Shown here in pieces: positions 33,242 through 60,704 of a DNA stretch of 64,000 bases. The stretch is from positions 500,790 to 564,789 of the forward strand of contig OY970314.1 of NCBI GenBank assembly GCA_963716475.1, written 5' to 3'. Source of the DNA: Candidatus Woesebacteria bacterium (GTDB lineage Bacteria > Patescibacteriota > Microgenomatia > UBA8517). The notes beneath the pieces are model-generated. The model ran no database searches, had not been told where the DNA came from, and saw only the letters and a list, made by a program, of their open reading frames with translations. A program made the translations under genes and the position numbers. Positions within the stretch are counted from its first letter, which is position 1. Each line of letters opens with the position of its first letter.

Positions 33242-33242
33242 A

Positions 33243-34759: not shown

Positions 34760-34773
34760 AGATTTTTCGGCAA

Positions 34774-35946: not shown

Positions 35947-36006
35947 TTGTTTTTACTGCTAGTTTCTTAATTTATTTTTTAAATATAGTCTCACTTTAAT
36001 AATTTC

Positions 36007-42922: not shown

Positions 42923-43257
42923 TAATCTTTCTTCTTGGTTTTTAGCGCTTCCAGTCTTACCAGCTCTTCCAGTTTTTTCTCAAGCTGCTTGGTTCTAACA
43001 TATGCAACTGCAACCATCGAAATTACCAATATGAAGCCTCCAATGACCATAAGATCAAAAACCCTTGTTACTAAAAAAGTCTTTGCAAACGATTGAAGAA
43101 GTTCCGGAAAAATTATAATGATAATGGCAATCGTCCACATAATGAGCCAGGAAACTATCTCTGTGCCTCCTAATTCCCCTCTTTTAAAGTGAAGAACGGC
43201 AAAATATATCATGCTGAAAGCGAAAAGCAGGGCAATAATTTGTAGTCCGATAATCAT
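42922..43257 (-). CDS. small 3-TM membrane protein with a C-terminal coiled-coil tail, DUF2304-like (occupies a GtrA-like position)
   Basis: 111 aa. MIIGLQIIALLFAFSMIYF...VSWLIMWTIAIIIIIF...VFDLMVIGGFILVISMVAV, then KQLEKKLEELVRLEALK. Confidence 0.5.
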   Translation of the reverse strand: MIIGLQIIALLFAFSMIYFAVLHFKRGELGGTEIVSWLIMWTIAIIIIIFPELLQSFAKTFLVTRVFDLMVIGGFILVISMVAVAYVRTKQLEKKLEELVRLEALKTKKKD

Positions 43258-43261: not shown

Positions 43262-44895
<1,634 letters not shown>

Positions 44896-44906: not shown

Positions 44907-46067
44907 TTAGGCTACCCAGTAGCCTCTTACAAACAACATTATCAAAATGACCCCCAGTGCAGCCGAGATAAAAATAGCCGGCCTGGTATATTTCCTAAAT
45001 TGGATAATCAGGTATGGTAAAAGGAAAACCGTGGGCACAAGAACATACCTTGGCATTGAAGAAAATGTTCCGGTTAGGGTTGCCAAGAGGAGAGCACAAA
45101 TTGAGAAAACCCAGTAGCTTAACCTCATTTTCTTAACAAAAGCTATTAAATATGCCAAAGGAACTAAGGTAAACGTAAATTCCAAAAACGCGTTAAAAAA
45201 CGACAAGGTAAAAATGTTTGTTGTTAAAAAGATTTTTAAATATCTGTAAATAACTTGCGGAAGAAAGATTATACCGTTTCCGATTCTCCCTGCTCCAAAA
45301 ACAGGCTGACTTGTCAAAAAATACAGAGGATCGTTAAATGCCGTTTTCAGGTAGTACATATATATCAAAATTCCCAAAGGAGTTATTAAAGTCCAGATAT
45401 AATTAATCCCTTTCTTACTTTGAAATGCCTCTACCAAATACAACGGAATAAGCAAGACTCCCGTAATCCGGGTAGCAGTAGAAAGCGCGATTAAAACCGC
45501 AGCCCAAAAGAAATTGCCTTTTCTGATTAAATAAACCGAGGAAACTGTCAAAAGCAGAAACAGGCTTTCCGTGTATATCGAGCCAAAGAAGTAGGAGGTC
45601 GGGAATGCCAAAAGAAAAATTACGGACAAAAAAGCAGTATCTTTTTTAAAATCGATATTTATAAGTTTATAGAAAACATACAGAGCGGCTAGGAAAAATA
45701 AATTGGACAGTATTATTCCGGAGTAAAAATAAGCCGGGTCGGTAAAAAGGTTGGTATCAAGATTCGGAACTCTCGGAAACACAAACGAAAATAGTCTGAT
45801 CAAGATGGGGAACAGTGGAAAAAAGGCTTGGGAATATTGAGCCAGGTAGCCGTCCTGAGCGATCCTTAAGTAATGAACCCCGTCAAAGTTCCCAAAACCC
45901 CAAATCCAATTTGGTAAATGGGTAATCTCCAAAACTCTGTCCGCATACGGAAATCTGGCTCCGAAAACCGGTAAAAGATAAATTGACAGGAAAGCCGCTA
46001 TAAAAAGAAGTATTCTCCAACCCAAAAAATACTTAAATATCTTCCAAAATACTTGTTTATCTGTCAT
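44907..46067 (-). CDS. PIG-V/Gpi18-like (Mannosyl_trans2) GT-C-fold mannosyltransferase
   Basis: 386 aa, polytopic. WGFGNFDGVHYLRIAQDGYLAQYSQAFFPLFPIL matches the W.fDgv.Y..IA..GY..e....AFfPl.P signature of the PIG-V family. Confidence 0.55.
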   Translation of the reverse strand: MTDKQVFWKIFKYFLGWRILLFIAAFLSIYLLPVFGARFPYADRVLEITHLPNWIWGFGNFDGVHYLRIAQDGYLAQYSQAFFPLFPILIRLFSFVFPRVPNLDTNLFTDPAYFYSGIILSNLFFLAALYVFYKLINIDFKKDTAFLSVIFLLAFPTSYFFGSIYTESLFLLLTVSSVYLIRKGNFFWAAVLIALSTATRITGVLLIPLYLVEAFQSKKGINYIWTLITPLGILIYMYYLKTAFNDPLYFLTSQPVFGAGRIGNGIIFLPQVIYRYLKIFLTTNIFTLSFFNAFLEFTFTLVPLAYLIAFVKKMRLSYWVFSICALLLATLTGTFSSMPRYVLVPTVFLLPYLIIQFRKYTRPAIFISAALGVILIMLFVRGYWVA

Positions 46068-47545
46068 GTTTTTGATTGTATAACATCCTTTTTGGAAAAC
46101 AGATAGAGTTCGTCGGCAAACTTGATTAACTTATACTTTGAATCTTTAAGCAAAAGGTTTTTAAGTTGTATCGCCTCCTCAAACGTTATCGGGAAAAAAC
46201 CGTCTCCTTCCTGTCCCGGGGTCAGATTCAGGACTACATAATCAGGGTTAATTACCTGATAATCCAACCTAAGTAAAACCACCTGCCCGTGGGTAAACCT
46301 GGTAGCCAAGGCATTTTGAGTCATAACTAAGCCGTCACGGGGTGTTTTCTGAATGATATTATCCAGGTATTTAACCCCCGCATTTTGTGCGTAAAATGCA
46401 GGATTATAGGCAAGACCCAAAGGACCCCTCAAGACAAATCTGTGTAGGACAAATACGGTCAGCATCAGAAAAATTGCATAATAGGTAATTACCTTTTTGT
46501 GCTTGATTGCTTTTTCAATTTTAATTAAAGGGTATAGTGCACCCATAAACATAAGGGGTGACAAGGTGGCACTATAATGCATTCCCAAGTCCCATCCTCT
46601 GGGTACAGCCGAAAAAAATCTTTCGAAGAAATTTTCGAAAATTGCCGGCAGAAGTGAAATTTCGGATAGCGGTAAAAAACCAAAACTCAAAAATGAATAG
46701 AAATAGGTCTTCAATTTAATTGATGGGGAGATAAACCTCTGAATAAAATCCCCCGCCGAGGAAACAGGCGCCGTTTGATAGAAATACACACCACCGGAAA
46801 AATAGGGAATAATATATTTAACTGCGGTAACGCCCCATAAAATACTGAGAGCTATCGTTATTAATGAAAATTTCCAATTGGCTCTGCTTTTTATTAAAAG
46901 AAAAATTCCCATAGCAATTCCCAAACCTGCAAATGATTCTTTAAAACCCAAAGTTATTACCAAAAACAGGAAATATAACAACCATTTCTTTTTAGATACC
47001 GCCCAAAACATCAACATAACCGGAAGCACGGCCACGGTGGTGTCATGAAAATCGGTGATAACGGCATTTTGCAAACCTACAAAGCCCAGATAAGCAAATA
47101 CTAAACTAAATACGGCAATTTTATTTTTAAGAAATTTATCGGCTAATTTAAAGGCAATAATTGCAGAAATACTTACACATAGTGTCTGGGCTACAAGAAT
47201 AATTTCCTGCCTATCGGTCAGCCAATATAATGGACTAAATAGAAAAATGCTGGGGTTGAAATGATCGGCAAATATCATCTTCATGGTATTTCCAAAATAG
47301 AAATGATAAACCAGGGGAGCTTTAAGTTGAGAAACTTTCCAAATGGCGGTATCAAAAATACCAAAATCAAAATATCCTGTTTGATATTGCCAATGCCGAT
47401 TTAAGGATACGGATAAAGCCGCCAAAGTCCACACAAAAATGAAAACGTAAGTTATTAAGGAGATATGCTTTTCAACCTTATTTGAAAATAAAGAAATAAA
47501 TCTCAAAAACGATAATTTACAGTTTTTTAAAAAATTATTTTTCAC
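46064..47545 (-). CDS. DUF2079-like polytopic membrane protein (GT-C-like)
   Basis: 493 aa, at least 12 TM. Loop QYQTGYFDFGIFDTAIWKVSQLKAP. Confidence 0.45.
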   Translation of the reverse strand: MKNNFLKNCKLSFLRFISLFSNKVEKHISLITYVFIFVWTLAALSVSLNRHWQYQTGYFDFGIFDTAIWKVSQLKAPLVYHFYFGNTMKMIFADHFNPSIFLFSPLYWLTDRQEIILVAQTLCVSISAIIAFKLADKFLKNKIAVFSLVFAYLGFVGLQNAVITDFHDTTVAVLPVMLMFWAVSKKKWLLYFLFLVITLGFKESFAGLGIAMGIFLLIKSRANWKFSLITIALSILWGVTAVKYIIPYFSGGVYFYQTAPVSSAGDFIQRFISPSIKLKTYFYSFLSFGFLPLSEISLLPAIFENFFERFFSAVPRGWDLGMHYSATLSPLMFMGALYPLIKIEKAIKHKKVITYYAIFLMLTVFVLHRFVLRGPLGLAYNPAFYAQNAGVKYLDNIIQKTPRDGLVMTQNALATRFTHGQVVLLRLDYQVINPDYVVLNLTPGQEGDGFFPITFEEAIQLKNLLLKDSKYKLIKFADELYLFSKKDVIQSKT

Positions 47546-48569
47546 CCGAGATTATTTTATATATTTCCAATGTATCTTTAGAGGTCTTATCCCAGGAATA
47601 GTCCCTTGGAAGTTTTTTATTAATATTTGGGTTTAAAATAGCTTTTGCCATTGATTTTATGTCATTTGGGTCACAGTAAGAGAAATCATCTCCCATAACC
47701 TCCACCAGACATTGAGACCTGGCTATTGCTACCGGTGTACCACAAGCAACTGCCTCAACGGCCGGGAGGCCGAAACCTTCGTAAAAAGAGGGTTGAACAT
47801 ACACCGTCGCCAAATTATATATCGCAGCCAAATCCTCATCCGGAATAAACCCCGGCCGGATTGTGTTTGTCCAATCAACATCTTTGAGATGCTTAAGCTC
47901 GGCGTGGCGCAAATCGCTGTTTTCGATTCCTTTGGCTTGCTTACCGCAAATTACCAACGGCATTTTTGCAATTCTGCAGGCTGCGACCATTCCCGGAATA
48001 TTCTTGTTGTAATTAACATCACCGACATACAAAGCAAAACGGTCAGGAAGGGTATACTTCTCTTTAGCTGCAATTAGTAAATCACGATTAGCTATTGGTT
48101 CAAAAACGGTACGGGGAGCAAGATAAATTACATACACTTTTCTTGGGTCCACCCCCAAAAATCTGCAAATATCCTTTTTGGAAGTTTCTGAAATCGTGAT
48201 AATCGCATCTACATTTTTCCTAACCATTTCTTTATTTTTCAAAAAATTAACTTTACCTCTCACGCCGGAAGGGTAATGCTTGGGGTAAATTAAAGGAATC
48301 AAATCGTGTATCGTCAGGATAACTTTGGCTTTAGGTTTGTCGGAAGGTAAATCCGTAAAAAATGGTCTGAAATATTGAAAGTGGACAACGTCAAATCCTA
48401 AAAAACCTCTTTTTGAAAAATCAAACTCGTATATTTGTATATCCTTATGTGGAACAAGTTTAAATCCCTGCAAAAGCTCCCTGGTATTCACTCCGATCCC
48501 CCTGACAGCGTGCCCCGAAGTTAAGGGGCCTGAATCAACTGCAACCTTAAGCATGTTTAAATTATACAT
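47535..48569 (-). CDS. glycosyltransferase family 4
   Basis: 344 aa. VYVQPSFYEGFGLPAVEAVACGTPVAIARS. Confidence 0.8.
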   Translation of the reverse strand: MYNLNMLKVAVDSGPLTSGHAVRGIGVNTRELLQGFKLVPHKDIQIYEFDFSKRGFLGFDVVHFQYFRPFFTDLPSDKPKAKVILTIHDLIPLIYPKHYPSGVRGKVNFLKNKEMVRKNVDAIITISETSKKDICRFLGVDPRKVYVIYLAPRTVFEPIANRDLLIAAKEKYTLPDRFALYVGDVNYNKNIPGMVAACRIAKMPLVICGKQAKGIENSDLRHAELKHLKDVDWTNTIRPGFIPDEDLAAIYNLATVYVQPSFYEGFGLPAVEAVACGTPVAIARSQCLVEVMGDDFSYCDPNDIKSMAKAILNPNINKKLPRDYSWDKTSKDTLEIYKIISGEK

Positions 48570-48619: not shown

Positions 48620-49348
48620 ATGTTATTCGGAATGATCAATAAATCAAAACATTTTGAAAATTACTTATATTTACTTGTTCTTTCCTTAGCCAATTTTTGG
48701 ATCTGGCAAATTTATTCAAATAATTTTATTCTCGGGATTATTTTATTAGCAATTGAACTTGGGCTTTTCGTTCTAATCACAAAAAAGGATTTGAAAAGAA
48801 ATTGCATATTCACTATTTTCATATCGGTTTTGCTCCTATTGGTTCTTGGCGTCATTCTTTTAATGGGTGAGTTTGACAACACCTTATTAACCACCTCTCC
48901 AACCGAAACAAGTATTCTTAACCAACGGCATGGTTATTTAGCTGAAGGTTTAGGAAAAATCTTTACTAATAAGTACGTTCTGCATTTCTACAAGCTACAA
49001 GAATATGGCACGGCTACCGGAAAGTATTTACAAAATGTTTTTTATAGCCTAGACCCAAATCTATACTTTTTCCGAAGCCACCCAAGAGAGAAAGCCGGGA
49101 TTGACGAATACAATAAATACTCCCCCATCGTTTTACCTCTTTTTGTAATAGGCGTTTTATTTTTAACAATTAACTACCATAAATATAAATTTTTGGTTTT
49201 ATATTCCATACCGGCAATATTATTTACGGGTTTCATCAGTCCCAAGTACAAACTTGGTCCACTGCTAATGTTTCCGCTTATAAATATAATCCTTTATCTG
49301 GGACTTATTGCGGTCATATCGAAAGTCAGACCATTATTTAAAAAGTGA
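48620..49348 (+). CDS. membrane protein (hypothetical)
   Basis: 242 aa, about 6 TM. 4-bp overlap with the downstream PMT_2-like gene. Confidence 0.4.
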   Translation: MLFGMINKSKHFENYLYLLVLSLANFWIWQIYSNNFILGIILLAIELGLFVLITKKDLKRNCIFTIFISVLLLLVLGVILLMGEFDNTLLTTSPTETSILNQRHGYLAEGLGKIFTNKYVLHFYKLQEYGTATGKYLQNVFYSLDPNLYFFRSHPREKAGIDEYNKYSPIVLPLFVIGVLFLTINYHKYKFLVLYSIPAILFTGFISPKYKLGPLLMFPLINIILYLGLIAVISKVRPLFKK

Positions 49349-51003
49349 AAACAAAAAAAATATTTCTACTGATATTATTTGTCATTATTTTATGTGCCGC
49401 CTGCTTCGTCAGGTTATACAAACTTGGGGAAATTCCGGCCGGGGCCTACCTTGACGAGGCTTCGCTGGGATACAATGCCTATTCGCTATTATTAACAGGC
49501 AGAGACGAATTTGGCAAAAATTGGCCGATATATTTTAGAGCTTTTTCGACCTTCCAAGACTCACTTTACGGCTATTTTAGTATTATTCCTGTTTATTTTC
49601 TTGGTTTAAGTATTTTCTCAACACGATTGGTATCGGTAATTTCGGGGTCAATTGTTGTTCTGATTACTTTTTTACTTTTTTATTACTCGGATCTCAAAAA
49701 TAAGTTAAGTCTGGCGCTTCTTGCCGGCCTTACGGTAGCATTTACACCTTGGGCGATCTACCAAAGCCGCGTGGCTGTTGGATCTAATTTAGGCTTGGCT
49801 TTAACAGCCATTAGCATCTTATTATTATTTTTATCCCTGAAAAGGGAATGGTTTTTTGTGCCCGCTTGTGCCTTTTTTGGGATTGCTTCTTATGCTTACG
49901 CCGGCCAGCGAATTACGGGCATATTATTTCCGATTGTCTTCGTACTAATTAATAGGAAAATATTTTCGCAATCTAAGAAGCTGGTCGTGATTGGTTTTGC
50001 GCTCTTAATACTTATTATGCTGCCGCAATTTATGGCACTATCTCACACGGGTTCATTAGTCAGATACCAAACACAAGGTTATACGCAAGAAAGTACTTTT
50101 CTGAAAAATGGAGATTCTTTAGTCAAATTACCGATTTTTGTAGGTTGGCCTTTGTATATAGTTAGGCAATTCACAAGTCAGTATCTTTCCGACTTTTCTC
50201 CCAGAAGCCTATTCTTTGAGCCGGAACCGCAACTTGTTAGATCTATTCCGGGCTTAAGTGTTTTCTATGTCTGGATGATTATTCCTTTCTTTATCGGTTT
50301 CGCCCGATTATGGAAAGAAAAATCAAATCCCTTAATACAAATCATATTTCTATTGATGATTATCGGACCTTTGCCGGAAGCTTTAACAGGTGACCCTTTC
50401 TATACCTTAAGGATGCTGCCCGGCTTATGGGGAATGACACTACTGGTGTCGTTCGGTATTTATGCCATCTTTGACAAGTTCAAACATAACTATGCAAAAA
50501 TCCTGTTGGCGGCATTTCTGATTGCTATTTCCGGTCTTAATTTTTATATAAGCTACTTTATTTTATTAAAACATGAACGTTCCGTATATTTCGGCTACCC
50601 TTTCCAGGTCCTGGCGGAAATTACGGAAGAAAACAAAAGTCAGACGTTTGTTTTGGATTCTGAGATTTATGACGCTCCTTATATCTGGATGGCTTTTTAT
50701 AAAAAATATGATCCTGTGGAATTGCAAGCTCAAACACCACCAGGCTTACTTAATCACTATTATGACGATTTGACTTTTTACAAATATAGAACGATCGGTA
50801 ATGTGGAAGTAAGAAAGATAAATTGGGGCGTTGACCAATGTAAAGACGAATATCTGGTTGGTGATATAACAGCTATATCTGACACTCAGGCCAAAGAACA
50901 CAAATTTACTCTTATTAGAGAAGTTAAAGATTTAACAGGAAAAACCATACTCTGGATTTATCGCACTAATCCCCAGCCGGAGTGCATCAATACTACAGAC
51001 TAG
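49345..51003 (+). CDS. PMT_2/ArnT-like GT-C-fold membrane glycosyltransferase (paralog 2 of 6)
   Basis: 552 aa. Loop-1 motif GAYLDEASLGYNAYSLLLTGRDEFGKNWPIYFRAF; second motif YQSRVAVGSNLG. Confidence 0.65.
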   Translation: MKTKKIFLLILFVIILCAACFVRLYKLGEIPAGAYLDEASLGYNAYSLLLTGRDEFGKNWPIYFRAFSTFQDSLYGYFSIIPVYFLGLSIFSTRLVSVISGSIVVLITFLLFYYSDLKNKLSLALLAGLTVAFTPWAIYQSRVAVGSNLGLALTAISILLLFLSLKREWFFVPACAFFGIASYAYAGQRITGILFPIVFVLINRKIFSQSKKLVVIGFALLILIMLPQFMALSHTGSLVRYQTQGYTQESTFLKNGDSLVKLPIFVGWPLYIVRQFTSQYLSDFSPRSLFFEPEPQLVRSIPGLSVFYVWMIIPFFIGFARLWKEKSNPLIQIIFLLMIIGPLPEALTGDPFYTLRMLPGLWGMTLLVSFGIYAIFDKFKHNYAKILLAAFLIAISGLNFYISYFILLKHERSVYFGYPFQVLAEITEENKSQTFVLDSEIYDAPYIWMAFYKKYDPVELQAQTPPGLLNHYYDDLTFYKYRTIGNVEVRKINWGVDQCKDEYLVGDITAISDTQAKEHKFTLIREVKDLTGKTILWIYRTNPQPECINTTD

Positions 51004-51014
51004 AACAAATATTT

Positions 51015-51746
51015 TCAGTACGAGTCTTTAATCCAGTCGAAATAGCGGATAGAGAGAAGTTCGTGGAATGACCTTACCATATCACCCGGGAAACGGACTC
51101 TTGTCTGTTTATCGTTTTTCCATACCACAGGTACTTCTTTAATAGAAAATCCATACTTTTTAGCCAAAAACAATGTCTCTGAATCAAAACCCCAACGAAA
51201 AATTTTCGTCTTATGAAAAATTTGTTGGGCGGCTTCTCGGGAAAAGCATTTAAAACCGCAGGTAAAATCTGTGACCTTGGTGTTTAATATTAATCGCGAA
51301 AGCAAAGTAAATATTTTTCCAAGATTTTCCCTTAAAAAAGGCTGATGCACAACAACTTCTGCTCCCTTGACTTTTCTGGTCCCTATAACCACATCATATT
51401 GGTTGATAAATTGACTGATCTTTTTTATTTCATCTATGGGTGTCGAAAGGTCTACATCCATAAATAATCTAAACTCACCAACTGCCGCCAACATTCCTGT
51501 TTTAACAGCATATCCTTTTCCACGGTTGTTTCTATAACTTATAAGCCTAAAGTCTGATTTCTTCTTGAGAAATTTGAGTCTTTCAAGAGTGTTGTCAGTA
51601 CTTCCGTCGTCCACGACAATAAGTTCCCACGGCTTATCAAGTCCCCGCAAATACCGGAGTATATTAACTATGTTATCAACACGTGTAGCCTCGTTATAAC
51701 AGGGAACAATAATAGACCAGAAAACGCTTTTTTGTTTTACTGTCAC
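51015..51746 (-). CDS. GT2 polyprenyl-phosphate sugar synthase (DPM1/GtrB-like)
   Basis: 243 aa. IIVPCYNEATRV...LIVVDDGSTDNT...FMDVDLSTP...CGFKCFSREA. Confidence 0.75.
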   Translation of the reverse strand: MTVKQKSVFWSIIVPCYNEATRVDNIVNILRYLRGLDKPWELIVVDDGSTDNTLERLKFLKKKSDFRLISYRNNRGKGYAVKTGMLAAVGEFRLFMDVDLSTPIDEIKKISQFINQYDVVIGTRKVKGAEVVVHQPFLRENLGKIFTLLSRLILNTKVTDFTCGFKCFSREAAQQIFHKTKIFRWGFDSETLFLAKKYGFSIKEVPVVWKNDKQTRVRFPGDMVRSFHELLSIRYFDWIKDSY

Positions 51747-51768
51747 AGCATATAATATAACCTACGTA

Positions 51769-54117
51769 ATGATATTACTATTAGTTTTGTTTAACTTGAT
51801 CCTGTTTGCGCCGATGCTTCATGGTCTTATCCCCCTGCCTACAGATGCCCTCGCCGGTGTCTATTACCCTTGGGCCGGACAATTTTGGGGATTTGTGGCC
51901 GGAATTCCTTACAAAAATGTCTCTCTAACGGATGTCTTTTCTCAACTATATCCCTGGCGAAGCCTGGCGATAGATTTAATCAAACACGGCAGTCTGCCAT
52001 TATGGAACTCTTTCTCCTTCTCCGGATATCCCCTCCTGGCCAACTGGCAATCCGCACCGTTTTACCCTCTGAATCTACTGATGCTCATATTTGGAAATCC
52101 CCACGGATACGGGTTGATGGTTTTTCTGCAACCGGTTCTTGCTGCCTCATTTATGTATATTTTCCTTCGTCAGCTGGGTCTTTCCAAGGTGGCTGCGGGC
52201 GTGGGAGGGTTGGTTTCTGCATATTCAGGGTTTGTCATGGTTTATTTGGAATATGCAACCATTGGTCAAATAATGGTTTGGCTTCCGCTGGTCTTGTATC
52301 TCTTTGAGAAATATTTTGAAAAAAAACAGATTCGTTTCTTGGCCTTGTCGTCCATCTGCCTATTCCCGGTACTAACCGGCGGTTTTTTCCAACCTGCATT
52401 CTATGTCATCTTGATTGCGTCACTTTATTTTCTTTTCCGCTCCCTATCGCTTCCGGAAGCGGTAAACAAGACTCGTTTGATTACTTTAGGCGCCGTTTTC
52501 ATTTTGGTCGGAGCGACCACAGCTGCCGTACAACTGCTACCTACGGCCGAACTTCTGAAATATTCGATAAGAAATCTGGACCAGAATATCATCGAATATC
52601 ATTATGGCCTTCTGCCCGTTCAGAACCTTATTTCATTTTTAGCTCCGGATTTTTTTGGAAACCCTGCGACGCAAAATTATTGGGGGGTAATCCAGTATCA
52701 GGAAGTAACGGGGTACTTTTCGGTAATTGCCCTCGCGTTGGCGCTTGCGGGGCTTTTCACCAAAAAAAGGAACTGGATGTTAAATCTTTTCTCCGGACTA
52801 TTTATCGGGTCAATACTTCTTGCCTTTGATAACCCGATAGGCAGACTTATTTATCAACTTAAAGTTCCTCTTCTTGCTACCGGGTATGCTTCCCGCTGGC
52901 TCATAATAACAGCATTCTCGGGAGCGTTTCTTGCAGCAACCGCAATTGAAAGATTTAATCAAAAAAAACTAGCCGTTATTCTCTGTTCCTTACTGGATAT
53001 ACTGATTTTGATTTATGGACTGATTTGGAAAGGCGTTATTCCGGTAAATCTTAACTACATCCTTGTTGCATTAAGGAATCTTTTACTACCAATTGCTTTA
53101 CTGGCAGGGGGTGTCACCATTTGTATTTTTATCAGAAATAAAAACTGGGCAAAATGGCTGCTTTTAATACTCATCGTTTTTGATCTGGGCCGTTTTACGA
53201 TGAAATTCACACCCTTCTCCGATCCTCAGTACACCAGCCGCGCTGTCCCGGTTTTCGAATACATAAAGAGCCAGACCAATATTGATCGTGTGATAAGTGA
53301 AGAGGGCCCTGTCCTTCCTGCCAATACCTGGATGTATCCGGAACTTTATTCACCAACCGGTTACGATCCGCTCTTGATAAAAGACTATGCAGTCTTTTTT
53401 GATGGTCTAAATATGGGTCTGGTAAATAAACCGGATTTAAGCGGCAGGTTTGACCAGATTAACTTTACACGCTATTTAAATCTCGCCAATCTTAACTCTC
53501 CGCTTCTTGACTTGGTCGGAGCAAAATATCTACTGGCCATAAAATATGATCAGTGGGGGCAAATAAGTTCTGTGGGGAAAATAAATGAAGCCAAAGTAGA
53601 TTTGACCCGCTATAAACCCGTATTTGAAGACGGAGAAACTGTTGTATTACAAAACCAAACAGTACTTCCAAGAGTTATTCTATACTACCAAGCGGAATCG
53701 GAAACAGACAATGTACAAGCGGCAGAGAAATTGGTAACGGGTTTTGATTTTCGAAACAAACTCCTTATTGACAAGGAAAATCCTACACAATATATGCCGG
53801 GAGAAAACGATACGGTTGAAATTGCCGAATATTCCGCTAACAAGGTTGATTTTCAGGTAAAAACTCAAAGTGGAGCATACTTTTTTCTATCGGACACTTT
53901 CTTCCCTGGTTGGCAGGTTTCTATCAACGGGAAGTCGGGCGAAATTTTACGTGCAGATAGCATCTTCAGAGCCGTTGAGGTTCCGCCGGGTGAATCACAA
54001 ATTGAAATGGTTTACTCGCCAAATAGCTTTAAGGTCGGCGCTATTATTTCGATAATTTCGCTTACGATACTGCTGATTTTGACATTTAAAAAACCACTTA
54101 ATCACGACACTAACTGA
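51769..54117 (+). CDS. YfhO-family GT-C-fold membrane glycosyltransferase
   Basis: 782 aa. N-terminal loop SQLYPWRSLAIDLIKHGSLPLWNSFSFSGYPLLANWQSAPFYPL is the YfhO signature. At least 12 TM, a large C-terminal extracytoplasmic domain, and a final TM. Confidence 0.7.
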   Translation: MILLLVLFNLILFAPMLHGLIPLPTDALAGVYYPWAGQFWGFVAGIPYKNVSLTDVFSQLYPWRSLAIDLIKHGSLPLWNSFSFSGYPLLANWQSAPFYPLNLLMLIFGNPHGYGLMVFLQPVLAASFMYIFLRQLGLSKVAAGVGGLVSAYSGFVMVYLEYATIGQIMVWLPLVLYLFEKYFEKKQIRFLALSSICLFPVLTGGFFQPAFYVILIASLYFLFRSLSLPEAVNKTRLITLGAVFILVGATTAAVQLLPTAELLKYSIRNLDQNIIEYHYGLLPVQNLISFLAPDFFGNPATQNYWGVIQYQEVTGYFSVIALALALAGLFTKKRNWMLNLFSGLFIGSILLAFDNPIGRLIYQLKVPLLATGYASRWLIITAFSGAFLAATAIERFNQKKLAVILCSLLDILILIYGLIWKGVIPVNLNYILVALRNLLLPIALLAGGVTICIFIRNKNWAKWLLLILIVFDLGRFTMKFTPFSDPQYTSRAVPVFEYIKSQTNIDRVISEEGPVLPANTWMYPELYSPTGYDPLLIKDYAVFFDGLNMGLVNKPDLSGRFDQINFTRYLNLANLNSPLLDLVGAKYLLAIKYDQWGQISSVGKINEAKVDLTRYKPVFEDGETVVLQNQTVLPRVILYYQAESETDNVQAAEKLVTGFDFRNKLLIDKENPTQYMPGENDTVEIAEYSANKVDFQVKTQSGAYFFLSDTFFPGWQVSINGKSGEILRADSIFRAVEVPPGESQIEMVYSPNSFKVGAIISIISLTILLILTFKKPLNHDTN

Positions 54118-54129
54118 CAGCCTACCTGA

Positions 54130-55236
54130 TCATACCCTTTTCTTTAGAAGGCCCACCAACAAGGAGGAAAGATTCAGATAAGCGTAAGGCAAGATTATTA
54201 AGAAATATCTTGTAAAGGGTACCTGTGTACTGGTTAAAAGAAGATAACCAATTGGTAGTAAATAAAAGAAAAACCTTAAGTCTTTCAACTTTGTTTTAAA
54301 GATTAGAAATACTGAAGCAAGAAAAGATATTGGCCAAAGAAAACTCCAGTCTCCTATGTGTATTATTCCGTTTTGCCACCACGGAAGAAAATAGCCGCTG
54401 ATAAATAATGCTATCGGACCTCCCGGAACACCTGCCGAATTGTGCGCCAACATATACCTTAAGACCTTGCCTTGATAAATAACTATGTTGAAATCTCCAT
54501 AATTGTTGATAAAAGTTTTTATATATAAAAGACTGTATGTGATAAGTGTAGTCAGCAGTACCAATCCTATCTTTTTAATATTGAGTCTTTCCTTCCTAAT
54601 GAATATTTTGTATATGGTAATTAAAAAAACAAATATAACTGCTGTGGACCAAAATTTGGAAGCAGCAAAAAGACCCAGTGTGATTCCCTGTAAGATAAAA
54701 CTTTCAGGATAAAAAAACATCAGAATAACAAAACTTAGAGCAAAAACCGTTTGCCCCAGGTCCAATAACGCCCCGTTCATCATGCCTCCAAAAACAGGGT
54801 CAATTAATAAAAGGGTAGTTCCAATTAAGGAAACTGCCCGGTTTTTAAATAGTTTCATCCCCAAAAAGTAAGTCAACCAAAGAAGTGCTATACCAAAAAC
54901 AATTTGGACATAAAAAGGATTTCCAAAAGCAAGGATGCTAAAACCGAAAAGGTATTTAATGAGTGCCGGAACTTGGAAATCATACCCCGTCGGGTCTGCC
55001 CCTTTTGCGTAAAGATACCCCGAGGCAATATAGAGATCGCTGTCGGAAAGGAAAATTCTATCTTTAATGGCATTACCTTTATCCTCGATGTCCTGAGATC
55101 TAAGATACTCGGATATCAAATTTACATTAAACTTATATTTAAAAAGGTCCTGATGTTTTAGAAAAAGAAAGCCTAAAAACAGTAGAGTAATAAAAGCATA
55201 CGGAAGAATCTTTTTTAATCGGAAAATTAATTTCAT
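54130..55236 (-). CDS. polytopic membrane protein, possible GT-C (hypothetical)
   Basis: 368 aa. Acidic loop DRIFLSDSDLYIASGYLYAKGADPTGYDFQVPAL after TM1. Confidence 0.4.
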   Translation of the reverse strand: MKLIFRLKKILPYAFITLLFLGFLFLKHQDLFKYKFNVNLISEYLRSQDIEDKGNAIKDRIFLSDSDLYIASGYLYAKGADPTGYDFQVPALIKYLFGFSILAFGNPFYVQIVFGIALLWLTYFLGMKLFKNRAVSLIGTTLLLIDPVFGGMMNGALLDLGQTVFALSFVILMFFYPESFILQGITLGLFAASKFWSTAVIFVFLITIYKIFIRKERLNIKKIGLVLLTTLITYSLLYIKTFINNYGDFNIVIYQGKVLRYMLAHNSAGVPGGPIALFISGYFLPWWQNGIIHIGDWSFLWPISFLASVFLIFKTKLKDLRFFFYLLPIGYLLLTSTQVPFTRYFLIILPYAYLNLSSLLVGLLKKRV

Positions 55237-55248
55237 ATAAAACCGATC

Positions 55249-56094
55249 TTACTTACTTGCAGTAATGTATTTAAAATAAGCGATCGGAAAATGCATAGCG
55301 GAAAAGAAGCTCCAAAGGAAACCGCCGGACCCGTCCAAAAACCCCAAATGGCGAAAATAGAGGTTTAAAAAGGTTCTTAACGGATAGTAAATAGTAAACA
55401 GCAAAAATGCAATAACACCTTTCGAAACCTTGTTGTCTCCAAGCTCTTTAGCTTTTAAATCGGTATAACGGTTGAAACGTACCAAATAGCGTTTGAGTGT
55501 TGGTGAATCATAATGCTCAAGGTCGCTGCTGAGCCAACCGACTTCACCATCTAGTTCAATCTGTTCGTGCACGGATCTTTGAGGGAACCTTGATTTCCCG
55601 TTTTTAACCAGGCGGATTACCCCATCAGGGTAGACCCCGGCGTGGATTAACGGTTTACCCAAGAAAATATTTCTTCTGGGAATAAAGTATCCGACAATTT
55701 CGCCGGTTTTTTTGCCTATCGGACCATCCCTTTCCTCTATGAGTTTTTGATGACGTAGGAACAGCTTATTGTAATTCGTAACCGGTAGTCGATGATTAAC
55801 GACAGAAATAATTTCTTTCGCCAATGCCGGCGTCACGGCCTCGTCCGCATCAAGCTGGAGTATCCATTCACCGGAGGCTTTTTCTAGAGCTTTTTGCTTG
55901 GTAACATGGAAAATGTCATGGTGGGGTTCAAGAAATATTTTTGCACCATTCTTTTTGGCAATCTCGACCGTTTTATCCGTCGAGTACTCGTCTACAACAA
56001 CAATTTCATCTGCTATATCTTTAACAGATTCAAGGCAACGACCAATATTAGTCTCCTCATTTCTGACTGCCAGGACAACAGATAGTTTGAACAT
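55249..56094 (-). CDS. glycosyltransferase family 2
   Basis: 281 aa. LSVVLAVRNEETNIGRCLESV...IVVVDEYSTDKT...LQLDADE; C-terminal hydrophobic helices. Its start codon overlaps the stop of the upstream PMT_2-like gene (TAATG). Confidence 0.8.
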   Translation of the reverse strand: MFKLSVVLAVRNEETNIGRCLESVKDIADEIVVVDEYSTDKTVEIAKKNGAKIFLEPHHDIFHVTKQKALEKASGEWILQLDADEAVTPALAKEIISVVNHRLPVTNYNKLFLRHQKLIEERDGPIGKKTGEIVGYFIPRRNIFLGKPLIHAGVYPDGVIRLVKNGKSRFPQRSVHEQIELDGEVGWLSSDLEHYDSPTLKRYLVRFNRYTDLKAKELGDNKVSKGVIAFLLFTIYYPLRTFLNLYFRHLGFLDGSGGFLWSFFSAMHFPIAYFKYITASK

Positions 56095-57656
56095 TAGTCA
56101 AAAGTACTCCTCGCGGTTACCAGGAAAAATGCATCCGACCCATTGGGATATTTTACAGCGTAAACGGTTTCAAATAAAAGCTGGTATTTTAAACCAGTGT
56201 AAACCGACGGCGTAACCACATATAAAACATGCGGAATCGGTTGACTATCAATAGGGTCCCAAAGGCCAAAATGATACTTTGAATATCCGGCTACGGTATT
56301 TGCCGGTCTTGATTGGGTTTCGTTATATTTAACAGTCTTCAAATATAAGGACAGAGGAGTTTTAAGATAAAAAAGATAGAAAATGTAAGGCTGCTGCCTT
56401 TCCGGAGTCATGTAGACCTCATCGTATTCCGGATGGGCTTTCACAAACTCAACGACCTGTTTCATTCCGTATTGCCATTCAATTGCATACCTTTTGGTGT
56501 AAACACCAAAATAATTTCGTATATAACCGAATAACGAAACTCCCAGAATGCCGGTTATTAATAGACCCACCGCAACTTTTATGTATCTGTTCTTAAACAT
56601 TTTTATTATCGTAAACACACCTAGGGCCGCAATAAGATGCCAACTTCCCGTCATAAACATTGCCCGGGCGGCGTGAGGTGCTTCGCTTGTTACACTCGCA
56701 GGTATCGGGGCCAGAAGAGCCCATGCTAAAACAATCAAATATTCTTTTTTACCTCTGAATATTCCCCAAATCAGGGCAATAACTCCTATTATTAAAAAAA
56801 CAATATCAACCTTGTAAAAAGTACCTGTTTGACCGGAAAGTCTGGGGTTACTGTCCCCTTGTACAAAGAGAAAGTTATATGAAAAATGCTCTAAATATTT
56901 TTTGGTGATAGCCTGGATGTTTCTTTCCTGAGGAGAAGATGTCTGCTTGAATCTTGCCCCACCGAGGAGAGCCGGCTCCACAAAAAATAAACTGACGAAA
57001 ATAAAAAATGCCAAAAGCCCCGCAAAAAAATATTTTTTATCCTTCAGAAGGTCCTTAAAATAGATAATAGTTATCAAAAGGAGTAGCGGGGGAACCAGCA
57101 CGGTTGCACTTTGATACGCAAGCAGGTCAAGACCCAAAGAAGCGAACCCCAATACTATTAAATAGTTCCTTTTTTCAAGACCTTTTAATATAAGGTAAAA
57201 ACCCAGCATGAAGAAAAAAATCGCGAAATTCAGTTCATGATTAAATCGTGAAAAGTGTATGTTATATGGCGAAATCGTTAATATTAACGAGGCTATAAGC
57301 CCTGCCCAACTGCTATCAAAGATCTTCTTACCCAGAAAAAAGATTATTGCTACGTTAAGGACTCCGAACAGTGCGGAGGAAGCTCTAACTCCTAATTCGT
57401 TAAGACCGAAAACCGCAATCGTCGGTACGGTTAAATAAATATGAACGGGGTGCTTATCATCTTCAAATGATTTAAAAATCAGGGGTAGTGTTTTACCCCA
57501 TTCGTCTTTTCCCCAATGTAAGATTGTCCAGGCATTATAACCGACAGCTGTCTCATCCCAACTTATAGAAGGAGGGGCACTGCTCAATTTATAGAAACGT
57601 AAAATCGCAGCCAAAATTAAAATAGCTGCAAAGATAATTAAGGTTAACTTTTTCAC
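56094..57656 (-). CDS. PMT_2/ArnT-like GT-C glycosyltransferase (paralog 3; tandem copy 4 of 4)
   Basis: 520 aa. SISWDETAVGYNAWTILHWGKDEWGKTLPLIFKSF; IHFSRFNHELNF. Confidence 0.65.
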   Translation of the reverse strand: MKKLTLIIFAAILILAAILRFYKLSSAPPSISWDETAVGYNAWTILHWGKDEWGKTLPLIFKSFEDDKHPVHIYLTVPTIAVFGLNELGVRASSALFGVLNVAIIFFLGKKIFDSSWAGLIASLILTISPYNIHFSRFNHELNFAIFFFMLGFYLILKGLEKRNYLIVLGFASLGLDLLAYQSATVLVPPLLLLITIIYFKDLLKDKKYFFAGLLAFFIFVSLFFVEPALLGGARFKQTSSPQERNIQAITKKYLEHFSYNFLFVQGDSNPRLSGQTGTFYKVDIVFLIIGVIALIWGIFRGKKEYLIVLAWALLAPIPASVTSEAPHAARAMFMTGSWHLIAALGVFTIIKMFKNRYIKVAVGLLITGILGVSLFGYIRNYFGVYTKRYAIEWQYGMKQVVEFVKAHPEYDEVYMTPERQQPYIFYLFYLKTPLSLYLKTVKYNETQSRPANTVAGYSKYHFGLWDPIDSQPIPHVLYVVTPSVYTGLKYQLLFETVYAVKYPNGSDAFFLVTARSTFD

Positions 57657-59074
57657 TTAAATTGAAATCCGTTGAATGACGCTACCTTTGAAAATCCCCA
57701 ATCGCTAACCGGGTTTAGCTTCACCTCTTCCCTGAATTTTTCCGGAGGATATTTCAGGTAATAGAGAGCAAAGATATAAGGCTGAGCATACTTATCGGAA
57801 ACCACACCGCTTTTTTGATTCGCAAAAATTTCCTTATATTGATACTGCCAATCAGAAGCGGTCTCGGAAGAATATTTTGTCAAAAAATCAACCATGTACG
57901 ATTCGAAAGACAAGTAGTAAGCCGCAATTACAACCAAAAGGATAACTGTACTAAATTTTTTGATATTTTCTCTTAAGAACATGACACCCAGAGCTGACAT
58001 TATGGCAAGTGAAGGAGCCGCAAGGAGTGCTCTTAACGCATGGGGTGATTCTTTGGTCAAGGCTGCGGGAATCGGAGCAATCAGAAGCGTTGCCAAAGGC
58101 AAAAAGTATAATATTTTTTTACTTTTAATAATTGCGAGTAAGCCTAAAAGTATCAGGGGAGCTTCAAATAAATAAAGCTCACCGTGTCCCGGAATTTGAC
58201 TGCGGGGATTGGTATCACCTTTGAAAAATAAAAATTGGGGGTCAAAATGGGAAAAATAGTTTTTAACAAAATCCAGCTTACTCGTAATTTGCACTTCAGC
58301 AAACCTCGCCCCACCCGAATCGTATTTATAAAGTCTATAAACCGGAATTAAGCTTAATAAGAATAATGTTATAGAAATGATAAGAACAACCGGATACTTG
58401 CGGTCTCTGATAAACTCGCGAAACTTGTAGACAAAAAGTAAAACCATCCAAATAGGAACAATTATCCGGAATGAGTTGTAACTGTAAAAAGATAAAATAA
58501 AACTTAATGTTGCAGCCAATAAATAATATTTGTTTTTGGGGAGAAGCAGAAACAAATACGTAGCGAGTAAAAAGAAAAATAGGCCCGCGGTGGCTTCATA
58601 TCCGGTTCTTGAAAATATAAAAAACCACGGAGAAAAACTTAGAATAAAGCTTGCCAGGATCGCAATACTCTCTTTGCCGGTTATTTTCTTGGTTAATAAA
58701 TAGACAACAATCAAAGTTCCCAACGAATACAAAACTGCCGGAAGTCTGACGGCATATTCATTTAAGCCTATTGTCTTAACAAATATGGCTACTGAATAAA
58801 TGTAGACCGGAAGCTTAAATTCGCCGAAGGCGCGAAAATGCAGAGGAAGTGTCACTCCCCATTCATCTTTCAGGTCGGTCGCAATCGAATAAGCATTATA
58901 TCCTATCGAGGCCTCATCCCAATAAACGGATTGCGGTATTTCTGCAATTTTATATATTCGGGTAGCAAGAAAAAGAACCAATACAAAGGCGAAGATTATT
59001 TTTCGTTTAATGAACGCATTATTTCGCATTTTTTTCAACAATATCAAATGCCCTATTACCGTTAAGGAAATCAA
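57653..59074 (-). CDS. PMT_2/ArnT-like GT-C glycosyltransferase (paralog 4; tandem copy 3 of 4)
   Basis: 473 aa. SVYWDEASIGYNAYSIATDLKDEWGVTLPLHFRAF; FIFSRTGYEATAG. The start is probably the internal MRNNAF..., which reduces the overlap with the upstream paralog. Confidence 0.65.
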   Translation of the reverse strand: MISLTVIGHLILLKKMRNNAFIKRKIIFAFVLVLFLATRIYKIAEIPQSVYWDEASIGYNAYSIATDLKDEWGVTLPLHFRAFGEFKLPVYIYSVAIFVKTIGLNEYAVRLPAVLYSLGTLIVVYLLTKKITGKESIAILASFILSFSPWFFIFSRTGYEATAGLFFFLLATYLFLLLPKNKYYLLAATLSFILSFYSYNSFRIIVPIWMVLLFVYKFREFIRDRKYPVVLIISITLFLLSLIPVYRLYKYDSGGARFAEVQITSKLDFVKNYFSHFDPQFLFFKGDTNPRSQIPGHGELYLFEAPLILLGLLAIIKSKKILYFLPLATLLIAPIPAALTKESPHALRALLAAPSLAIMSALGVMFLRENIKKFSTVILLVVIAAYYLSFESYMVDFLTKYSSETASDWQYQYKEIFANQKSGVVSDKYAQPYIFALYYLKYPPEKFREEVKLNPVSDWGFSKVASFNGFQFK

Positions 59075-60677
59075 CAGTCAAAAGTCTTGGTAAATTATCA
59101 GGGAAGTCGCCGGATTTTCCTATAAACAACATTTTCTTCCCGGGATTTGCATTAACAATGTCTTGATAGTGAGTTCCGGTATCACCAAGGTCCGGAAAAT
59201 AAAACTTATCAAACTTGAGAACCCAAATCCATTGATTGGCCTCAAAACGGTCAAGGTTCGGGTCATTCTGATACTTTGCCGGGTCCCAGTTCAAGAAAAA
59301 AAGAGTAAACATGTGAGGCTCTCCGTAAGTCCGGCTGAAAACTATCAGGTCATAGTTGTTATAGTGCTCTTTTATATAACCTACTGCTTGCTTATAACCA
59401 TATTGCCAATCGCGTGAATATAGAACAGGATAAATATTGTAATAATTATTTAAATATCCTTTGAAACTGAAGGCTAGTGCAATTACTGACGCAGTCATTA
59501 CTACCCAACGGATAATATTCTTCCGGCTTAGCAACTTAAATGTCTTGTAAATACCAAGAGCGGTAAATATTTGATACGGAATTGCCGCCAATAGTGTTCT
59601 TAGTGCGTTAGGAATACTGTCAACCGTTGCCGATACAGGAATAAATGCCAAAAGTAACCATGTTACGAGTAGCCACCTCCATTTATTTTTGTTCCTAAAA
59701 AGAAAGAAAAGACCGATTAAAATAAACGGTGCCTGAATTGCATACATTTCCCCAATCCCTTGAACGTGTTGTTGCTTATGCCCCGCGCCATTTATAAAAA
59801 GGAAGTCGGGAGTAAAATGACTAAGGTAATTCCCCACGAATACATAAACATAATGTGTTACTTTATTGTGAATAAGACGGGGTAGCGGTTCAGGAAGACG
59901 TGTATTACCACGCGCTTCATTTATCCGAAGCGTAAATCCCGGATCATCTGTAATACTTACCAGATTAAACCTGGCTGTTGCCTCCCCGCTTATTACAAAG
60001 CTTGCAAGTGGGATCATCGACAACAAAAAAACCAGTAGGCTAAGAATAAATATTCTGGTATTTTTCAAAATATCTTTTTTATAAATTAGGAAAAGGGCTA
60101 GTACAAATAGTGGAGTAAAAACCCGTGCGGCATTATAAGTATAAATTGAAATAATAAAAGGTATTGTCGAGGCTAACCAATATTTTTTGTTTGTAAATCC
60201 CTTGATAAAAAGCCACACCCCAAGGGTAACCCAGAAAACCGAAAATGAGGATTCAAAAGATACCCTAGTCAGCTGAATATGCCAGGGGGAAATTGCAAGA
60301 AAAAATGAGGAGGTTAGAGCAATCCACTCGTTTTGAAAAATTTCCTTGGCCAAGAAATAAAGAAGTAACACCGTCAATGTTCCGTAAATGACAGGAGTAA
60401 TCCTTACTCCGAGCTCGTTAAGACCGAACATTGCAATTCCCGGAATCGAAGCATATATCTGCGCCGGAAGTTTATACTCACCGTAAGATTTAAAATGAAC
60501 AGGCAAAAGCTGCCCCCACTCGTCTCGGCCGGTTTTGAGAACGGAGTAGGCGTTGTAGCCGATTGATACCTCGTCCCAGTTGAGTGATGGCGGATCAGAA
60601 GTAACCCTATATAGCCTCAGGAATAAAGCCAGCGCGACAACCAAGAAAAGAACAATCCTGGATAAATTACGCTTCAT
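59019..60677 (-). CDS. PMT_2/ArnT-like GT-C glycosyltransferase (paralog 5; tandem copy 2 of 4)
   Basis: 552 aa. SLNWDEVSIGYNAYSVLKTGRDEWGQLLPVHFKSY; IQLTRVSFESSFS. Confidence 0.65.
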   Translation of the reverse strand: MKRNLSRIVLFLVVALALFLRLYRVTSDPPSLNWDEVSIGYNAYSVLKTGRDEWGQLLPVHFKSYGEYKLPAQIYASIPGIAMFGLNELGVRITPVIYGTLTVLLLYFLAKEIFQNEWIALTSSFFLAISPWHIQLTRVSFESSFSVFWVTLGVWLFIKGFTNKKYWLASTIPFIISIYTYNAARVFTPLFVLALFLIYKKDILKNTRIFILSLLVFLLSMIPLASFVISGEATARFNLVSITDDPGFTLRINEARGNTRLPEPLPRLIHNKVTHYVYVFVGNYLSHFTPDFLFINGAGHKQQHVQGIGEMYAIQAPFILIGLFFLFRNKNKWRWLLVTWLLLAFIPVSATVDSIPNALRTLLAAIPYQIFTALGIYKTFKLLSRKNIIRWVVMTASVIALAFSFKGYLNNYYNIYPVLYSRDWQYGYKQAVGYIKEHYNNYDLIVFSRTYGEPHMFTLFFLNWDPAKYQNDPNLDRFEANQWIWVLKFDKFYFPDLGDTGTHYQDIVNANPGKKMLFIGKSGDFPDNLPRLLTVDFLNGNRAFDIVEKNAK

Positions 60678-60704
60678 TACTATTAATTATGCCTTAAAAT
60701 GCTT

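Follow-up and report, generated by a model that had tools for sequence, protein, structure and literature searches.

What does it mean that genes for GT2 glycosyltransferases lie repeatedly beside genes for polytopic GT-C glycosyltransferases in a genome of ~0.98 Mb? The question is raised by the 64,000-nucleotide stretch analyzed here (the window), which comes from a Woesebacteria-like bacterium (Patescibacteria, Microgenomates); the nearest named relatives of its proteins are Candidatus Woesebacteria. Members of the Patescibacteria, or Candidate Phyla Radiation, live as ultra-small episymbionts, most of them uncultured, and next to nothing is known of their surface chemistry. In this ~1 Mb genome, surface glycans take up almost all of the 64 kb of the window, in which at least 17 genes are GT-C-like. 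An earlier note on this DNA singled out three GT2 genes, at 51015 (GT2a), 55249 (GT2b), and 62975 (GT2c), as GtrB-like synthases that serve neighboring GT-C enzymes in several independent glycosylation reactions. All of the open reading frames (ORFs) that it named are present, with position and strand as it had them, and its interpretation is partly supported. Two conserved GT2/GT-C modules do exist, but the arrangement is better read as a backbone in which one synthase serves many GT-Cs, plus two accessory modules. As judged from sequence, the window probably carries a cell-envelope glycan cluster that is conserved across Microgenomates/Woesebacteria and follows a multi-component transmembrane glycosylation logic.

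Classification by hidden Markov models and by a search for membrane anchors separates the three GT2s. GT2a and GT2c are of the DPM1, polyprenyl-phosphate type, as the earlier note had proposed, whereas GT2b is SunS/GmaR-like, and none of the three has a C-terminal anchor. GT2 models match only the first ~95 residues of GT2b. Its best sequence matches in the PDB are GmaR (4e-15) and SunS/ThuS (~1e-10), and its best NCBIfam model is SunS (TIGR04195), at 57.5 bits versus an equivalog cut-off of 350 and over residues 9–86 only, which is below family membership. The predicted fold matches SunS and ThuS with an E value of 4e-13 and a template modelling score (TM-score) of 0.54 over 261 aligned columns, followed by WrtF and TarS; the corresponding values for GtrB and ArnC are 2.5e-7 and 0.34–0.41. 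Motifs that are common to GT2a, GT2c, and the GT2s at 43262 (GT2d) and 40360 (GT2f) in an alignment, including GSR and D/E-x-x-S/C-G-F-K/R, are absent from GT2b and from the GT2s at 42128 and 29802. The LDADE motif and the C-terminal helices of GT2b may be like those of WaaE/LgtF-type lipopolysaccharide-core glucosyltransferases. The family of GT2b comprises more than 7,900 homologs, with 70–82% identity across Woesebacteria, and 428 representatives of 50%-identity clusters at E ≤ 1e-30, many of them ~250 amino acids (aa) long. An NCBIfam scan of seven such ~250-aa representatives returned no named equivalog. The family (P0261–P0409) also includes tandem-duplicated forms of ~530 aa with four matched stretches, as well as giant multidomain proteins of 1,000–2,700 aa with at least one copy of the domain.

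Synteny was compared at 80 loci carrying a GT2b homolog, 69 of them in Patescibacteria (Woese-, Davies-, Ames-, Levy-, and Gottesmanbacteria, some Saccharimonadales, and Parcubacteria) and 11 in Acidobacteria/Elusimicrobia. In the window, the start of GT2b overlaps the stop of the last tandem GT-C gene (56094–57656), as the earlier note had observed; the overlap is a single base (TAATG). A same-strand ORF that is 380 aa or longer and has six or more transmembrane helices directly precedes GT2b in 53 of the 63 patescibacterial loci with upstream room, and the median junction is a 4-nucleotide (nt) overlap in the 37 loci where phmmer called the upstream gene GT-C. The arrays upstream of GT2b homologs hold two to six or more GT-C genes, and the paralog order 59019–57653–56094 is found in at least 16 loci. 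The adjacency of GT2b with the preceding GT-C array is the most conserved of the three that had been flagged. At the outgroup loci of Acidobacteria and Elusimicrobia, no GT-C was found near the GT2b homolog (38–40% identity), and its neighbors (kinases, sigma factors, TPR and OEP proteins) offer no functional clue. The idea that strong conservation sets GT2b apart from its neighbors was dropped; bits per residue against L006 are similar for the adjacent genes.

The conserved arrangement continues downstream, as seen at the 45 loci where 6 kb or more of sequence lies beyond GT2b. A GT4 gene is among the next two labelled genes in 40 of them, a PIG-V-like gene lies downstream in 31, and a DUF2304 gene in 13. 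In 41 of the 45, the downstream genes include a DPM1-type GT2, at a median distance of 4.8 kb; six have one inside or before the array, and a single locus has YfhO. The backbone consists of a GT-C array, the SunS-like GT2, a GT4, a PIG-V-like GT-C, one DPM1-type GT2, and sometimes DUF2304, and it is conserved over several candidate phyla. This order, with one downstream DPM1-type GT2, suggests that one lipid-sugar synthase feeds many GT-Cs. The modules around YfhO and GT2c look like lineage-specific additions.

In the window, the downstream synthase candidate is GT2d. It matches PpgS (1.6e-27, model positions 2–215 of 226) and AglJ (6e-22) in NCBIfam, and DPMS and GtrB in the PDB; the PpgS score is 96.4 bits, below the equivalog cut-off of 370. 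The DUF2304 gene follows after 4 nt. This pair is also found in L002, in L004–L006, and in 13 of the 45 loci, and it is the best-conserved candidate source of the lipid-linked donor for the GT-C genes. The DUF2079 gene recurs in L002 and L031, and GT2f is conserved in L002, L006, L012, L019, and L052. A further backbone gene, for a methyltransferase (41450–42127, minus strand), is present as an ORF of 176 aa versus 219 aa in relatives. In-frame stops break its upstream portion exactly at the S-adenosylmethionine-binding motif (‘FLK*GVEQGDLLASL’ in the window versus ‘VLEIGCGTGDLLASL’ in L006), and it looks like a pseudogene.

GT2a and the YfhO gene form a divergent module. The best NCBIfam match of GT2a is PgfS (4e-21, below the equivalog cut-off), followed by Dol-P hexose transferase, PpgS, and ArnC. 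Its best PDB match is DPMS (5mlz, 2.8e-17), followed by ArnC and GtrB (5ekp, 1.6e-12), with alignments that span the DxD and G-(S/T)-R motifs. The YfhO protein matches PF09586 at 2e-32 (112.9 bits versus a gathering cut-off of 28.5, residues 51–641), and its C-terminus matches PgfM1 and PgfM2. The database protein (P0121) has 767 aa, implying a start at 51814, and the starts of GT2a and YfhO are 67 nt apart with this start or 22 nt apart with that of the longest ORF. The orientations reported in the earlier note were borne out: GT2a is divergent from YfhO and convergent with the GT-C gene at 49345, from which it is separated by 11 nt.

Homologs of this YfhO in Patescibacteria are 34–82% identical, and a metagenome scan with it yielded five loci only. 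The divergent pair is found in five relatives (L006, L007, L092, L093, and L094), and L094 also keeps the 49345-type GT-C convergent with GT2a. In L007, where YfhO is 44% identical, the pair lies amid LysM, CTP synthase, and polymerase genes; this recurrence in unrelated surroundings marks it as a portable module. In L044, YfhO is co-directional and is followed by a GT2d-like gene. Among eight informative close relatives, a DPM1-type GT2 thus adjoins YfhO in the five divergent cases and in L044. By analogy with CsbB/YfhO or PgfS/PgfM, GT2a would make a lipid-linked donor and YfhO would use it, as an accessory portable two-gene module.

The second accessory unit is centered on GT2c. Its NCBIfam matches cover the whole catalytic domain and are led by AglJ (1e-20), PpgS (6e-15), and Dol-P hexose transferase (3e-12); a profile built from eight homologs finds DPMS (5mlz, 1.2e-11) as its best match in the PDB. 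GT2c overlaps the small membrane protein gene mpB by 4 nt, and the GT-C gene at 60705–62327 begins 6 nt beyond mpB. The order GT2c–mpB–GT-C (540 aa) is kept in three close relatives (L088, L089, and L090), in which the following 552-aa and 452/463-aa genes are present wherever the locus reaches; the 526-aa gene is also present in L090. The adjacencies of both GT2a and GT2c are therefore kept in relatives, and both enzymes fall with the polyprenyl-phosphate type, in line with what the earlier note expected of them. Its statement that GT2c heads the tandem array does not hold. The GT-C-like ORF at 63818–64000 runs past the window edge, which shows that the array continues upstream of GT2c, and L088–L090 have two to four more PMT_2 genes plus GT87 genes upstream of their GT2c homolog. 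mpB has no Pfam or NCBIfam match and only 19 homologs, all close, and its AlphaFold2 model (mean pLDDT, the predicted local distance difference test, 49.6) is unusable. We infer that GT2c, mpB, and 60705 constitute an accessory three-gene unit within the GT-C array, with mpB as a candidate anchor/activator or flippase.

The GT-C paralogs themselves differ in how clearly they match known families. The earlier assignment to PMT_2 stands for 56094, 57653, and 59019, which reach the gathering score, so that three of the four tandem genes in 56094–62327 do so. The fourth, 60705, falls below it (1.5e-4, 22.5 bits versus a cut-off of 26.1; Agl23-like, 1e-7), and 49345 has no Pfam match and is linked to the PMT_2 set by paralogy only, with 37% identity to 60705 (BLASTP, E 6e-90) and 24–27% to the other three. 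An Asp-Glu pair (D37-E38) directly after the first transmembrane helix is invariant in all five paralogs, which have 7–11 hydropathy peaks per protein. PMT/ArnT-like GT-Cs are expected to have 8–13 transmembrane helices and, in the extracytoplasmic loop that follows the first of them, a DE or DxD acidic motif, a feature described in PMC8035078. The only PDB sequence match of 56094 is ArnT (5ezm, 4e-5). The 59019 type is the commonest in the arrays of relatives. Read from its TTG start, the longest ORF of 57653–59074 shares 56 nt with the preceding gene; its start is likely the ATG at 59029, 15 codons downstream, which leaves an 11-nt overlap.

Table 1. Features of the glycan cluster, in coordinates of the window
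Feature	Coordinates	Strand	Basis
GT2c, DPM1/AglJ-type polyprenyl-phosphate glycosyltransferase candidate, 251 aa, no transmembrane helix	62975..63730	-	NCBIfam, PDB profile
mpB, 214-aa membrane protein, ~5 transmembrane helices, no known family	62334..62978	-	between GT2c and GT-C 60705
GT-C paralog, 540 aa	60705..62327	-	PMT_2 weak; Agl23-like; paralogy
GT-C paralog, 552 aa, PMT_2/PMT	59019..60677	-	PF13231 38.0 bits, PF02366 37.3 bits
GT-C paralog, 473 aa as longest ORF	57653..59074	-	Pfam PMT_2 38.8 bits
GT-C paralog, 520 aa, last of array	56094..57656	-	Pfam PMT_2 57.8 bits
GT2b, SunS/GmaR-like GT2, 281 aa, not DPM1/GtrB type	55249..56094	-	sequence and predicted fold
GT4 glycosyltransferase, backbone	47535..48569	-	Pfam Glycos_transf_1, Glyco_transf_4
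DUF2079 polytopic membrane protein, GT-C-like	46064..47545	-	PF09852 7e-39, weak PMT_2
PIG-V-like (Mannosyl_trans2) GT-C	44907..46067	-	PF04188 2.7e-15
NAD-dependent sugar-nucleotide epimerase/reductase	43927..44865	-	PF01370 2.4e-52, GDP_Man_Dehyd 2e-25
GT2d, PpgS/GacI-like DPM1-type GT2, 229 aa, candidate lipid-sugar synthase	43262..43951	-	NCBIfam, PDB
DUF2304 small membrane protein, 111 aa, GacJ/Rv3632 family	42922..43257	-	PF10066 5e-17, 62.5 bits vs cut-off 25.5
GT2f, 366 aa, methyltransferase-like N-terminal part and AglJ-like DPM1-type GT2 domain	40360..41460	+	NCBIfam AglJ 3.7e-30, Pfam
GT2a, DPM1/PgfS-type polyprenyl-phosphate glycosyltransferase candidate, 243 aa, no transmembrane helix	51015..51746	-	NCBIfam, PDB matches, synteny
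YfhO-family GT-C, 782 aa as longest ORF	51769..54117	+	PF09586
GT-C paralog, 552 aa, closest to 60705	49345..51003	+	BLASTP paralogy
mpA, 242-aa membrane protein, ~4 transmembrane helices	48620..49348	+	4-nt overlap with start of 49345
mp368, 368-aa polytopic membrane protein, at least 7 transmembrane helices	54130..55236	-	optional backbone member
Further GT-C-like gene, 3' end, cut by window edge	63818..64000	-	C-terminus resembles PMT_2 paralogs

The third component of a Gtr-type system, and the anchor of its synthase, were also considered. No transmembrane segment was found in GT2a, GT2b, or GT2c (Kyte-Doolittle, 19-residue window, threshold 1.6), and they are 243–281 aa long versus ~310–340 aa for GtrB. 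The absence of a transmembrane helix from every one of them means that the DPM1-type enzymes also differ from GtrB in architecture, since GtrB has a GT-A domain, two juxtamembrane helices, and two C-terminal transmembrane helices (PMC4728340). The transmembrane part of polyprenyl-phosphate glycosyltransferases may sit on a separate chain (PMC4728340), and a variant comprising a cytoplasmic GT-A enzyme plus a separate membrane protein has been described (PMC8035078). By analogy, the DPM1-type GT2s of the window resemble the catalytic subunits human DPM1, PpgS, and GacI, which lack transmembrane helices and rely on a second protein in the membrane; bioRxiv 10.1101/180810 describes what GacJ and Rv3632 do. 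The three-component proposal of the earlier note therefore holds insofar as synthase candidates lie beside GT-Cs, but neither a GtrA homolog among the scanned ORFs nor a GtrB-type anchor accompanies them. Wzx (25521–26807) alone is flippase-like among the genes of the window, whose 97% coding density leaves no gap in which a small flippase gene could lie.

Comparison with known systems places the modules more precisely. The GT2a/YfhO pair recalls CsbB/YfhO/GtcA of Bacillus subtilis, Staphylococcus aureus, and Listeria, and PgfS/PgfM1/PgfM2 of Streptococcus mutans, in that a DPM1-type GT2 adjoins a YfhO-family GT-C; the logic would also be shared, with a C55-P-sugar made inside and used outside. 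However, CsbB and PgfS are membrane-linked (the PgfS model has 308 positions), whereas GT2a has neither that length nor a transmembrane helix. In addition, the genes here are divergent with closely spaced starts, no GtcA/GtrA flippase gene was found nearby, and the host is a patescibacterium without known teichoic acid. The succession of GT2d, which lacks transmembrane helices, and DUF2304 follows that of gacI–gacJ in the GacI/GacJ/GacK/GacL system of Streptococcus pyogenes and that of ppgS–Rv3632 in PpgS/Rv3632/Rv3779 of Mycobacterium tuberculosis, with GT-C genes in the same cluster. Here, many GT-Cs rather than one accompany the pair (43951–42922), which lies outside the flagged interval. 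PpgS is a GalNAc-P-polyprenol synthase, and GT2d has the same architecture but, by the bit score given above, is not the same enzyme. With GtrA/GtrB/GtrC of Shigella and Salmonella phages, the likeness is in concept only, a polyprenyl-P-sugar synthase combined with a GT-C transferase. The window has no C-terminal transmembrane hairpin, no GtrA among the scanned ORFs, and no phage context, and its GT-Cs are PMT_2 and YfhO proteins rather than GtrC. SunS/ThuS peptide S-glycosyltransferases and the flagellin O-GlcNAc transferase GmaR are the best sequence and fold matches of GT2b, but GT2b lacks a TPR or peptide-binding extension, and its coupling to a GT-C array is not reported for SunS or GmaR.

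Mycobacterial lipomannan, lipoarabinomannan (LAM), and arabinogalactan are assembled, in outline, by Ppm1 together with the GT-Cs PimE, MptA/B/C, and Emb/Aft, with priming by the cytoplasmic GT4 enzymes PimA and PimB. At the level of this outline, the likeness is that one lipid-sugar synthase feeds a series of diverged GT-Cs, that a GT4 belongs to the pathway, and that GT87, the family of MptA/B, occurs in the clusters of relatives. In contrast, the GT-Cs here are PMT_2, PIG-V-like, DUF2079, and YfhO proteins in one operon-like array, and no phosphatidylinositol pathway is evident. The narrow pairing of GT2 and GT-C is thus mostly ordinary, adding members to known lipid-carrier-dependent glycosylation systems. 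The cluster as a whole is unlike known systems in four ways: synthases without transmembrane helices, no GtrA homolog among the scanned ORFs, four to eight GT-Cs in tandem, and a SunS-like GT2 coupled to the last GT-C. A literature search on Patescibacteria/Microgenomates with YfhO, GT-C, or mannosyltransferase found no description of such a cluster, which is not proof of absence.

These family assignments, this gene order, and this conservation allow us to propose a scheme in which the donor sugars, the acceptor, the order of action, the flippase, and the role of GT2b are postulated. Soluble DPM1-type GT-A enzymes, working at the inner membrane face, would transfer a sugar from its nucleotide-activated form to polyprenyl phosphate, the lipid-linked sugar would be flipped across the membrane, and polytopic GT-C enzymes would transfer the sugar to acceptors outside. 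The single DPM1-type synthase of the backbone would supply the donor for most GT-C paralogs, and these would act in sequence on one glycoconjugate. In the window, the array would comprise at least six diverged PMT_2/ArnT-like GT-Cs, including 49345 and the truncated one, and would end in GT2b as a SunS/GmaR-like Leloir GT2. GT2b and the GT4 would act on the cytoplasmic side, making or priming the acceptor rather than a lipid-linked donor, with the YfhO and 62975 modules as candidate sources of lineage-specific decorations. A stepwise build-up of one glycoconjugate is suggested by the conserved order in which the diverged paralogs occur and by the GT4, PIG-V-like, DUF2079, and, in relatives, GT87 genes that accompany them.

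Extending this scheme, we tentatively suggest that Microgenomates and some other Patescibacteria may build a conserved, possibly essential lipoglycan or wall glycopolymer outside the membrane. Three to eight sequential GT-Cs in tandem would be fed by one DPM1-type synthase without transmembrane helices, and priming would fall to the GT4 and to the SunS-like GT2, which would be physically or translationally coupled to the last GT-C. If true, this assembly line would be a bacterial analogue of the ALG series of the endoplasmic reticulum lumen or of mycobacterial lipomannan/LAM assembly, held in a single operon in genomes of ~1 Mb. Conservation of the core arrangement over several candidate phyla points to an important envelope glycoconjugate, which may mediate host attachment. 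The synthases without transmembrane helices and their small membrane partners are concrete, expressible targets for biochemistry.

Several observations weigh against this picture. The AlphaFold2 model of GT2b is of moderate confidence (mean pLDDT 74), and the gap between TM-scores of 0.54 for SunS and 0.41 for GtrB is modest, so that a non-canonical lipid-phosphate acceptor for GT2b is possible. All NCBIfam matches are far below the equivalog cut-offs. No GtrA-family (PF04138) match was found for 48620, 62334, 54130, 42922, or the other ORFs scanned at 26.8–28.4 and 36–64 kb. One close YfhO homolog (L091, 81% identical) has no adjacent GT2, and distant ones (34–41% identity, L096–L098) lie beside GT2b-like and GT4 genes without an adjacent DPM1-type GT2. 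Lastly, the window contains eight GT2/GT-C adjacencies versus 5.8 ± 1.9 in gene-order shuffles (P = 0.18). Pairing within the window alone is therefore not above chance, and the evidence for real pairs comes only from conservation in relatives.

Of the alternatives to a sequential assembly line, the one that survives best involves proteins as acceptors. The tandem PMT_2 paralogs would be Pmt-like protein O-glycosyltransferases, each using a polyprenyl-P-sugar to modify different secreted or surface proteins (S-layer, pilins, adhesins), GT2b would be a cytoplasmic protein or peptide glycosyltransferase, and no polymer would be made. The Pfam PMT and PMT_2 matches are as this alternative predicts, and, among proteins of known structure, the closest relatives of GT2b attach sugars to peptides or flagellin. 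Moreover, the Pgf system (PgfS with the YfhO-family proteins PgfM1 and PgfM2), which GT2a and YfhO match, glycosylates adhesins (bioRxiv 10.1101/2022.10.10.511621). However, PMT_2 (PF13231) also covers ArnT-like lipid and glycan transferases, and the only PDB sequence match is to ArnT. No gene for an acceptor protein is evident in the cluster, and the conserved order of three to eight diverged paralogs with GT4, PIG-V-like, DUF2079, and, in some relatives, GT87 genes is more like a sequential assembly line. We regard protein O-glycosylation as a rather doubtful explanation of the array.

It is unlikely that each of the three GT2s is a GtrB-like synthase dedicated to its neighboring GT-C, so that at least three Gtr-type three-component systems would work independently. 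GT2a and GT2c would fit such systems, being of the DPM1 type with conserved GT-C neighbors. However, GT2b resembles SunS and GmaR rather than DPM1/GtrB, none of the GT2s has a transmembrane anchor, and no GtrA homolog was found among the scanned ORFs. The downstream counts given above, with the DPM1-type GT2 beyond the whole array in 41 of 45 loci and within or before it in six, indicate that one-to-one pairing is not the rule. That the adjacencies have no functional meaning, as might be expected in a 60-kb island dense in glycosyltransferase genes, agrees with the shuffle test but is very improbable, because all three recur in other genomes, one of them in the unrelated surroundings of L007, and the GT-C/GT2b junction, often with a stop/start overlap, spans several candidate phyla.

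Parts of the cluster vary among relatives. Relative to L002, L004, and L006, the interval 48620–55236 (mpA, GT-C, GT2a, YfhO, and mp368) is variable and is inserted between GT2b and the backbone GT4. In L004/L005, an AbiEii/DUF6922 toxin-antitoxin-like pair (10878–11793) is inserted directly after the GT2b homolog, and a DUF3800 gene lies inside the cluster. The backbone thus tolerates insertions at the position where the window holds the YfhO module. The unit of mpA and the 49345-type GT-C is also found in L006 and L012, and homologs of mp368, which has no Pfam or NCBIfam match and is only suspected to be a GT-C, lie beside or near GT2b in L012, L054, L061, L062, and L067. Homology between mpA and mpB was considered and rejected, as their similarity has an E value of 0.002 over 72 C-terminal residues and clustering gives no link. 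The distant YfhO loci L096–L098 have the order GT2b-like, GT2, GT2b-like, GT4, (GT87), YfhO, methyltransferase. This arrangement indicates that GT-C genes from different families have the SunS-like GT2 family as a recurrent neighbor.

The window as a whole contains 53 genes, including the GT-C-like genes mentioned at the outset and nine GT2s, and from ~4.8 to 64 kb nearly every gene is for glycan biosynthesis. A promoter and terminator scan of 47–64 kb gave no usable operon boundaries; promoter-like sites were fewer than in shuffles, and terminator-like sites were intragenic. The region 4841–28376 is a Wzx/Wzy-type polysaccharide locus with DUF4012, a Bac_transf initiating transferase, a ManC-like nucleotidyltransferase, six complete GT4s, Wzy_C, a hexapeptide acyltransferase, and Wzx. 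Scattered among them are a DUF6056 membrane protein gene and an additional four PMT_2 genes (12084, 17261, 23245, and 26820). A further GT4 at 22447–23244 (minus strand) is split by a frameshift: its 180-aa ORF is the C-terminal Glycos_transf_1 half only, and the 255-nt upstream ‘gap’ yields the GT4-like N-terminal portion when read in a different frame. The split reflects either a pseudogene or an error of assembly. The region 28000–40200 has a low GC content (0.29–0.35 versus ~0.40 elsewhere) and holds FkbM and two other methyltransferases, a DegT aminotransferase, two GT4s, one GT2, and two GT-C-like genes, 36007 (PMT_2) and 38510. This island looks like a variable, horizontally exchanged glycan module.

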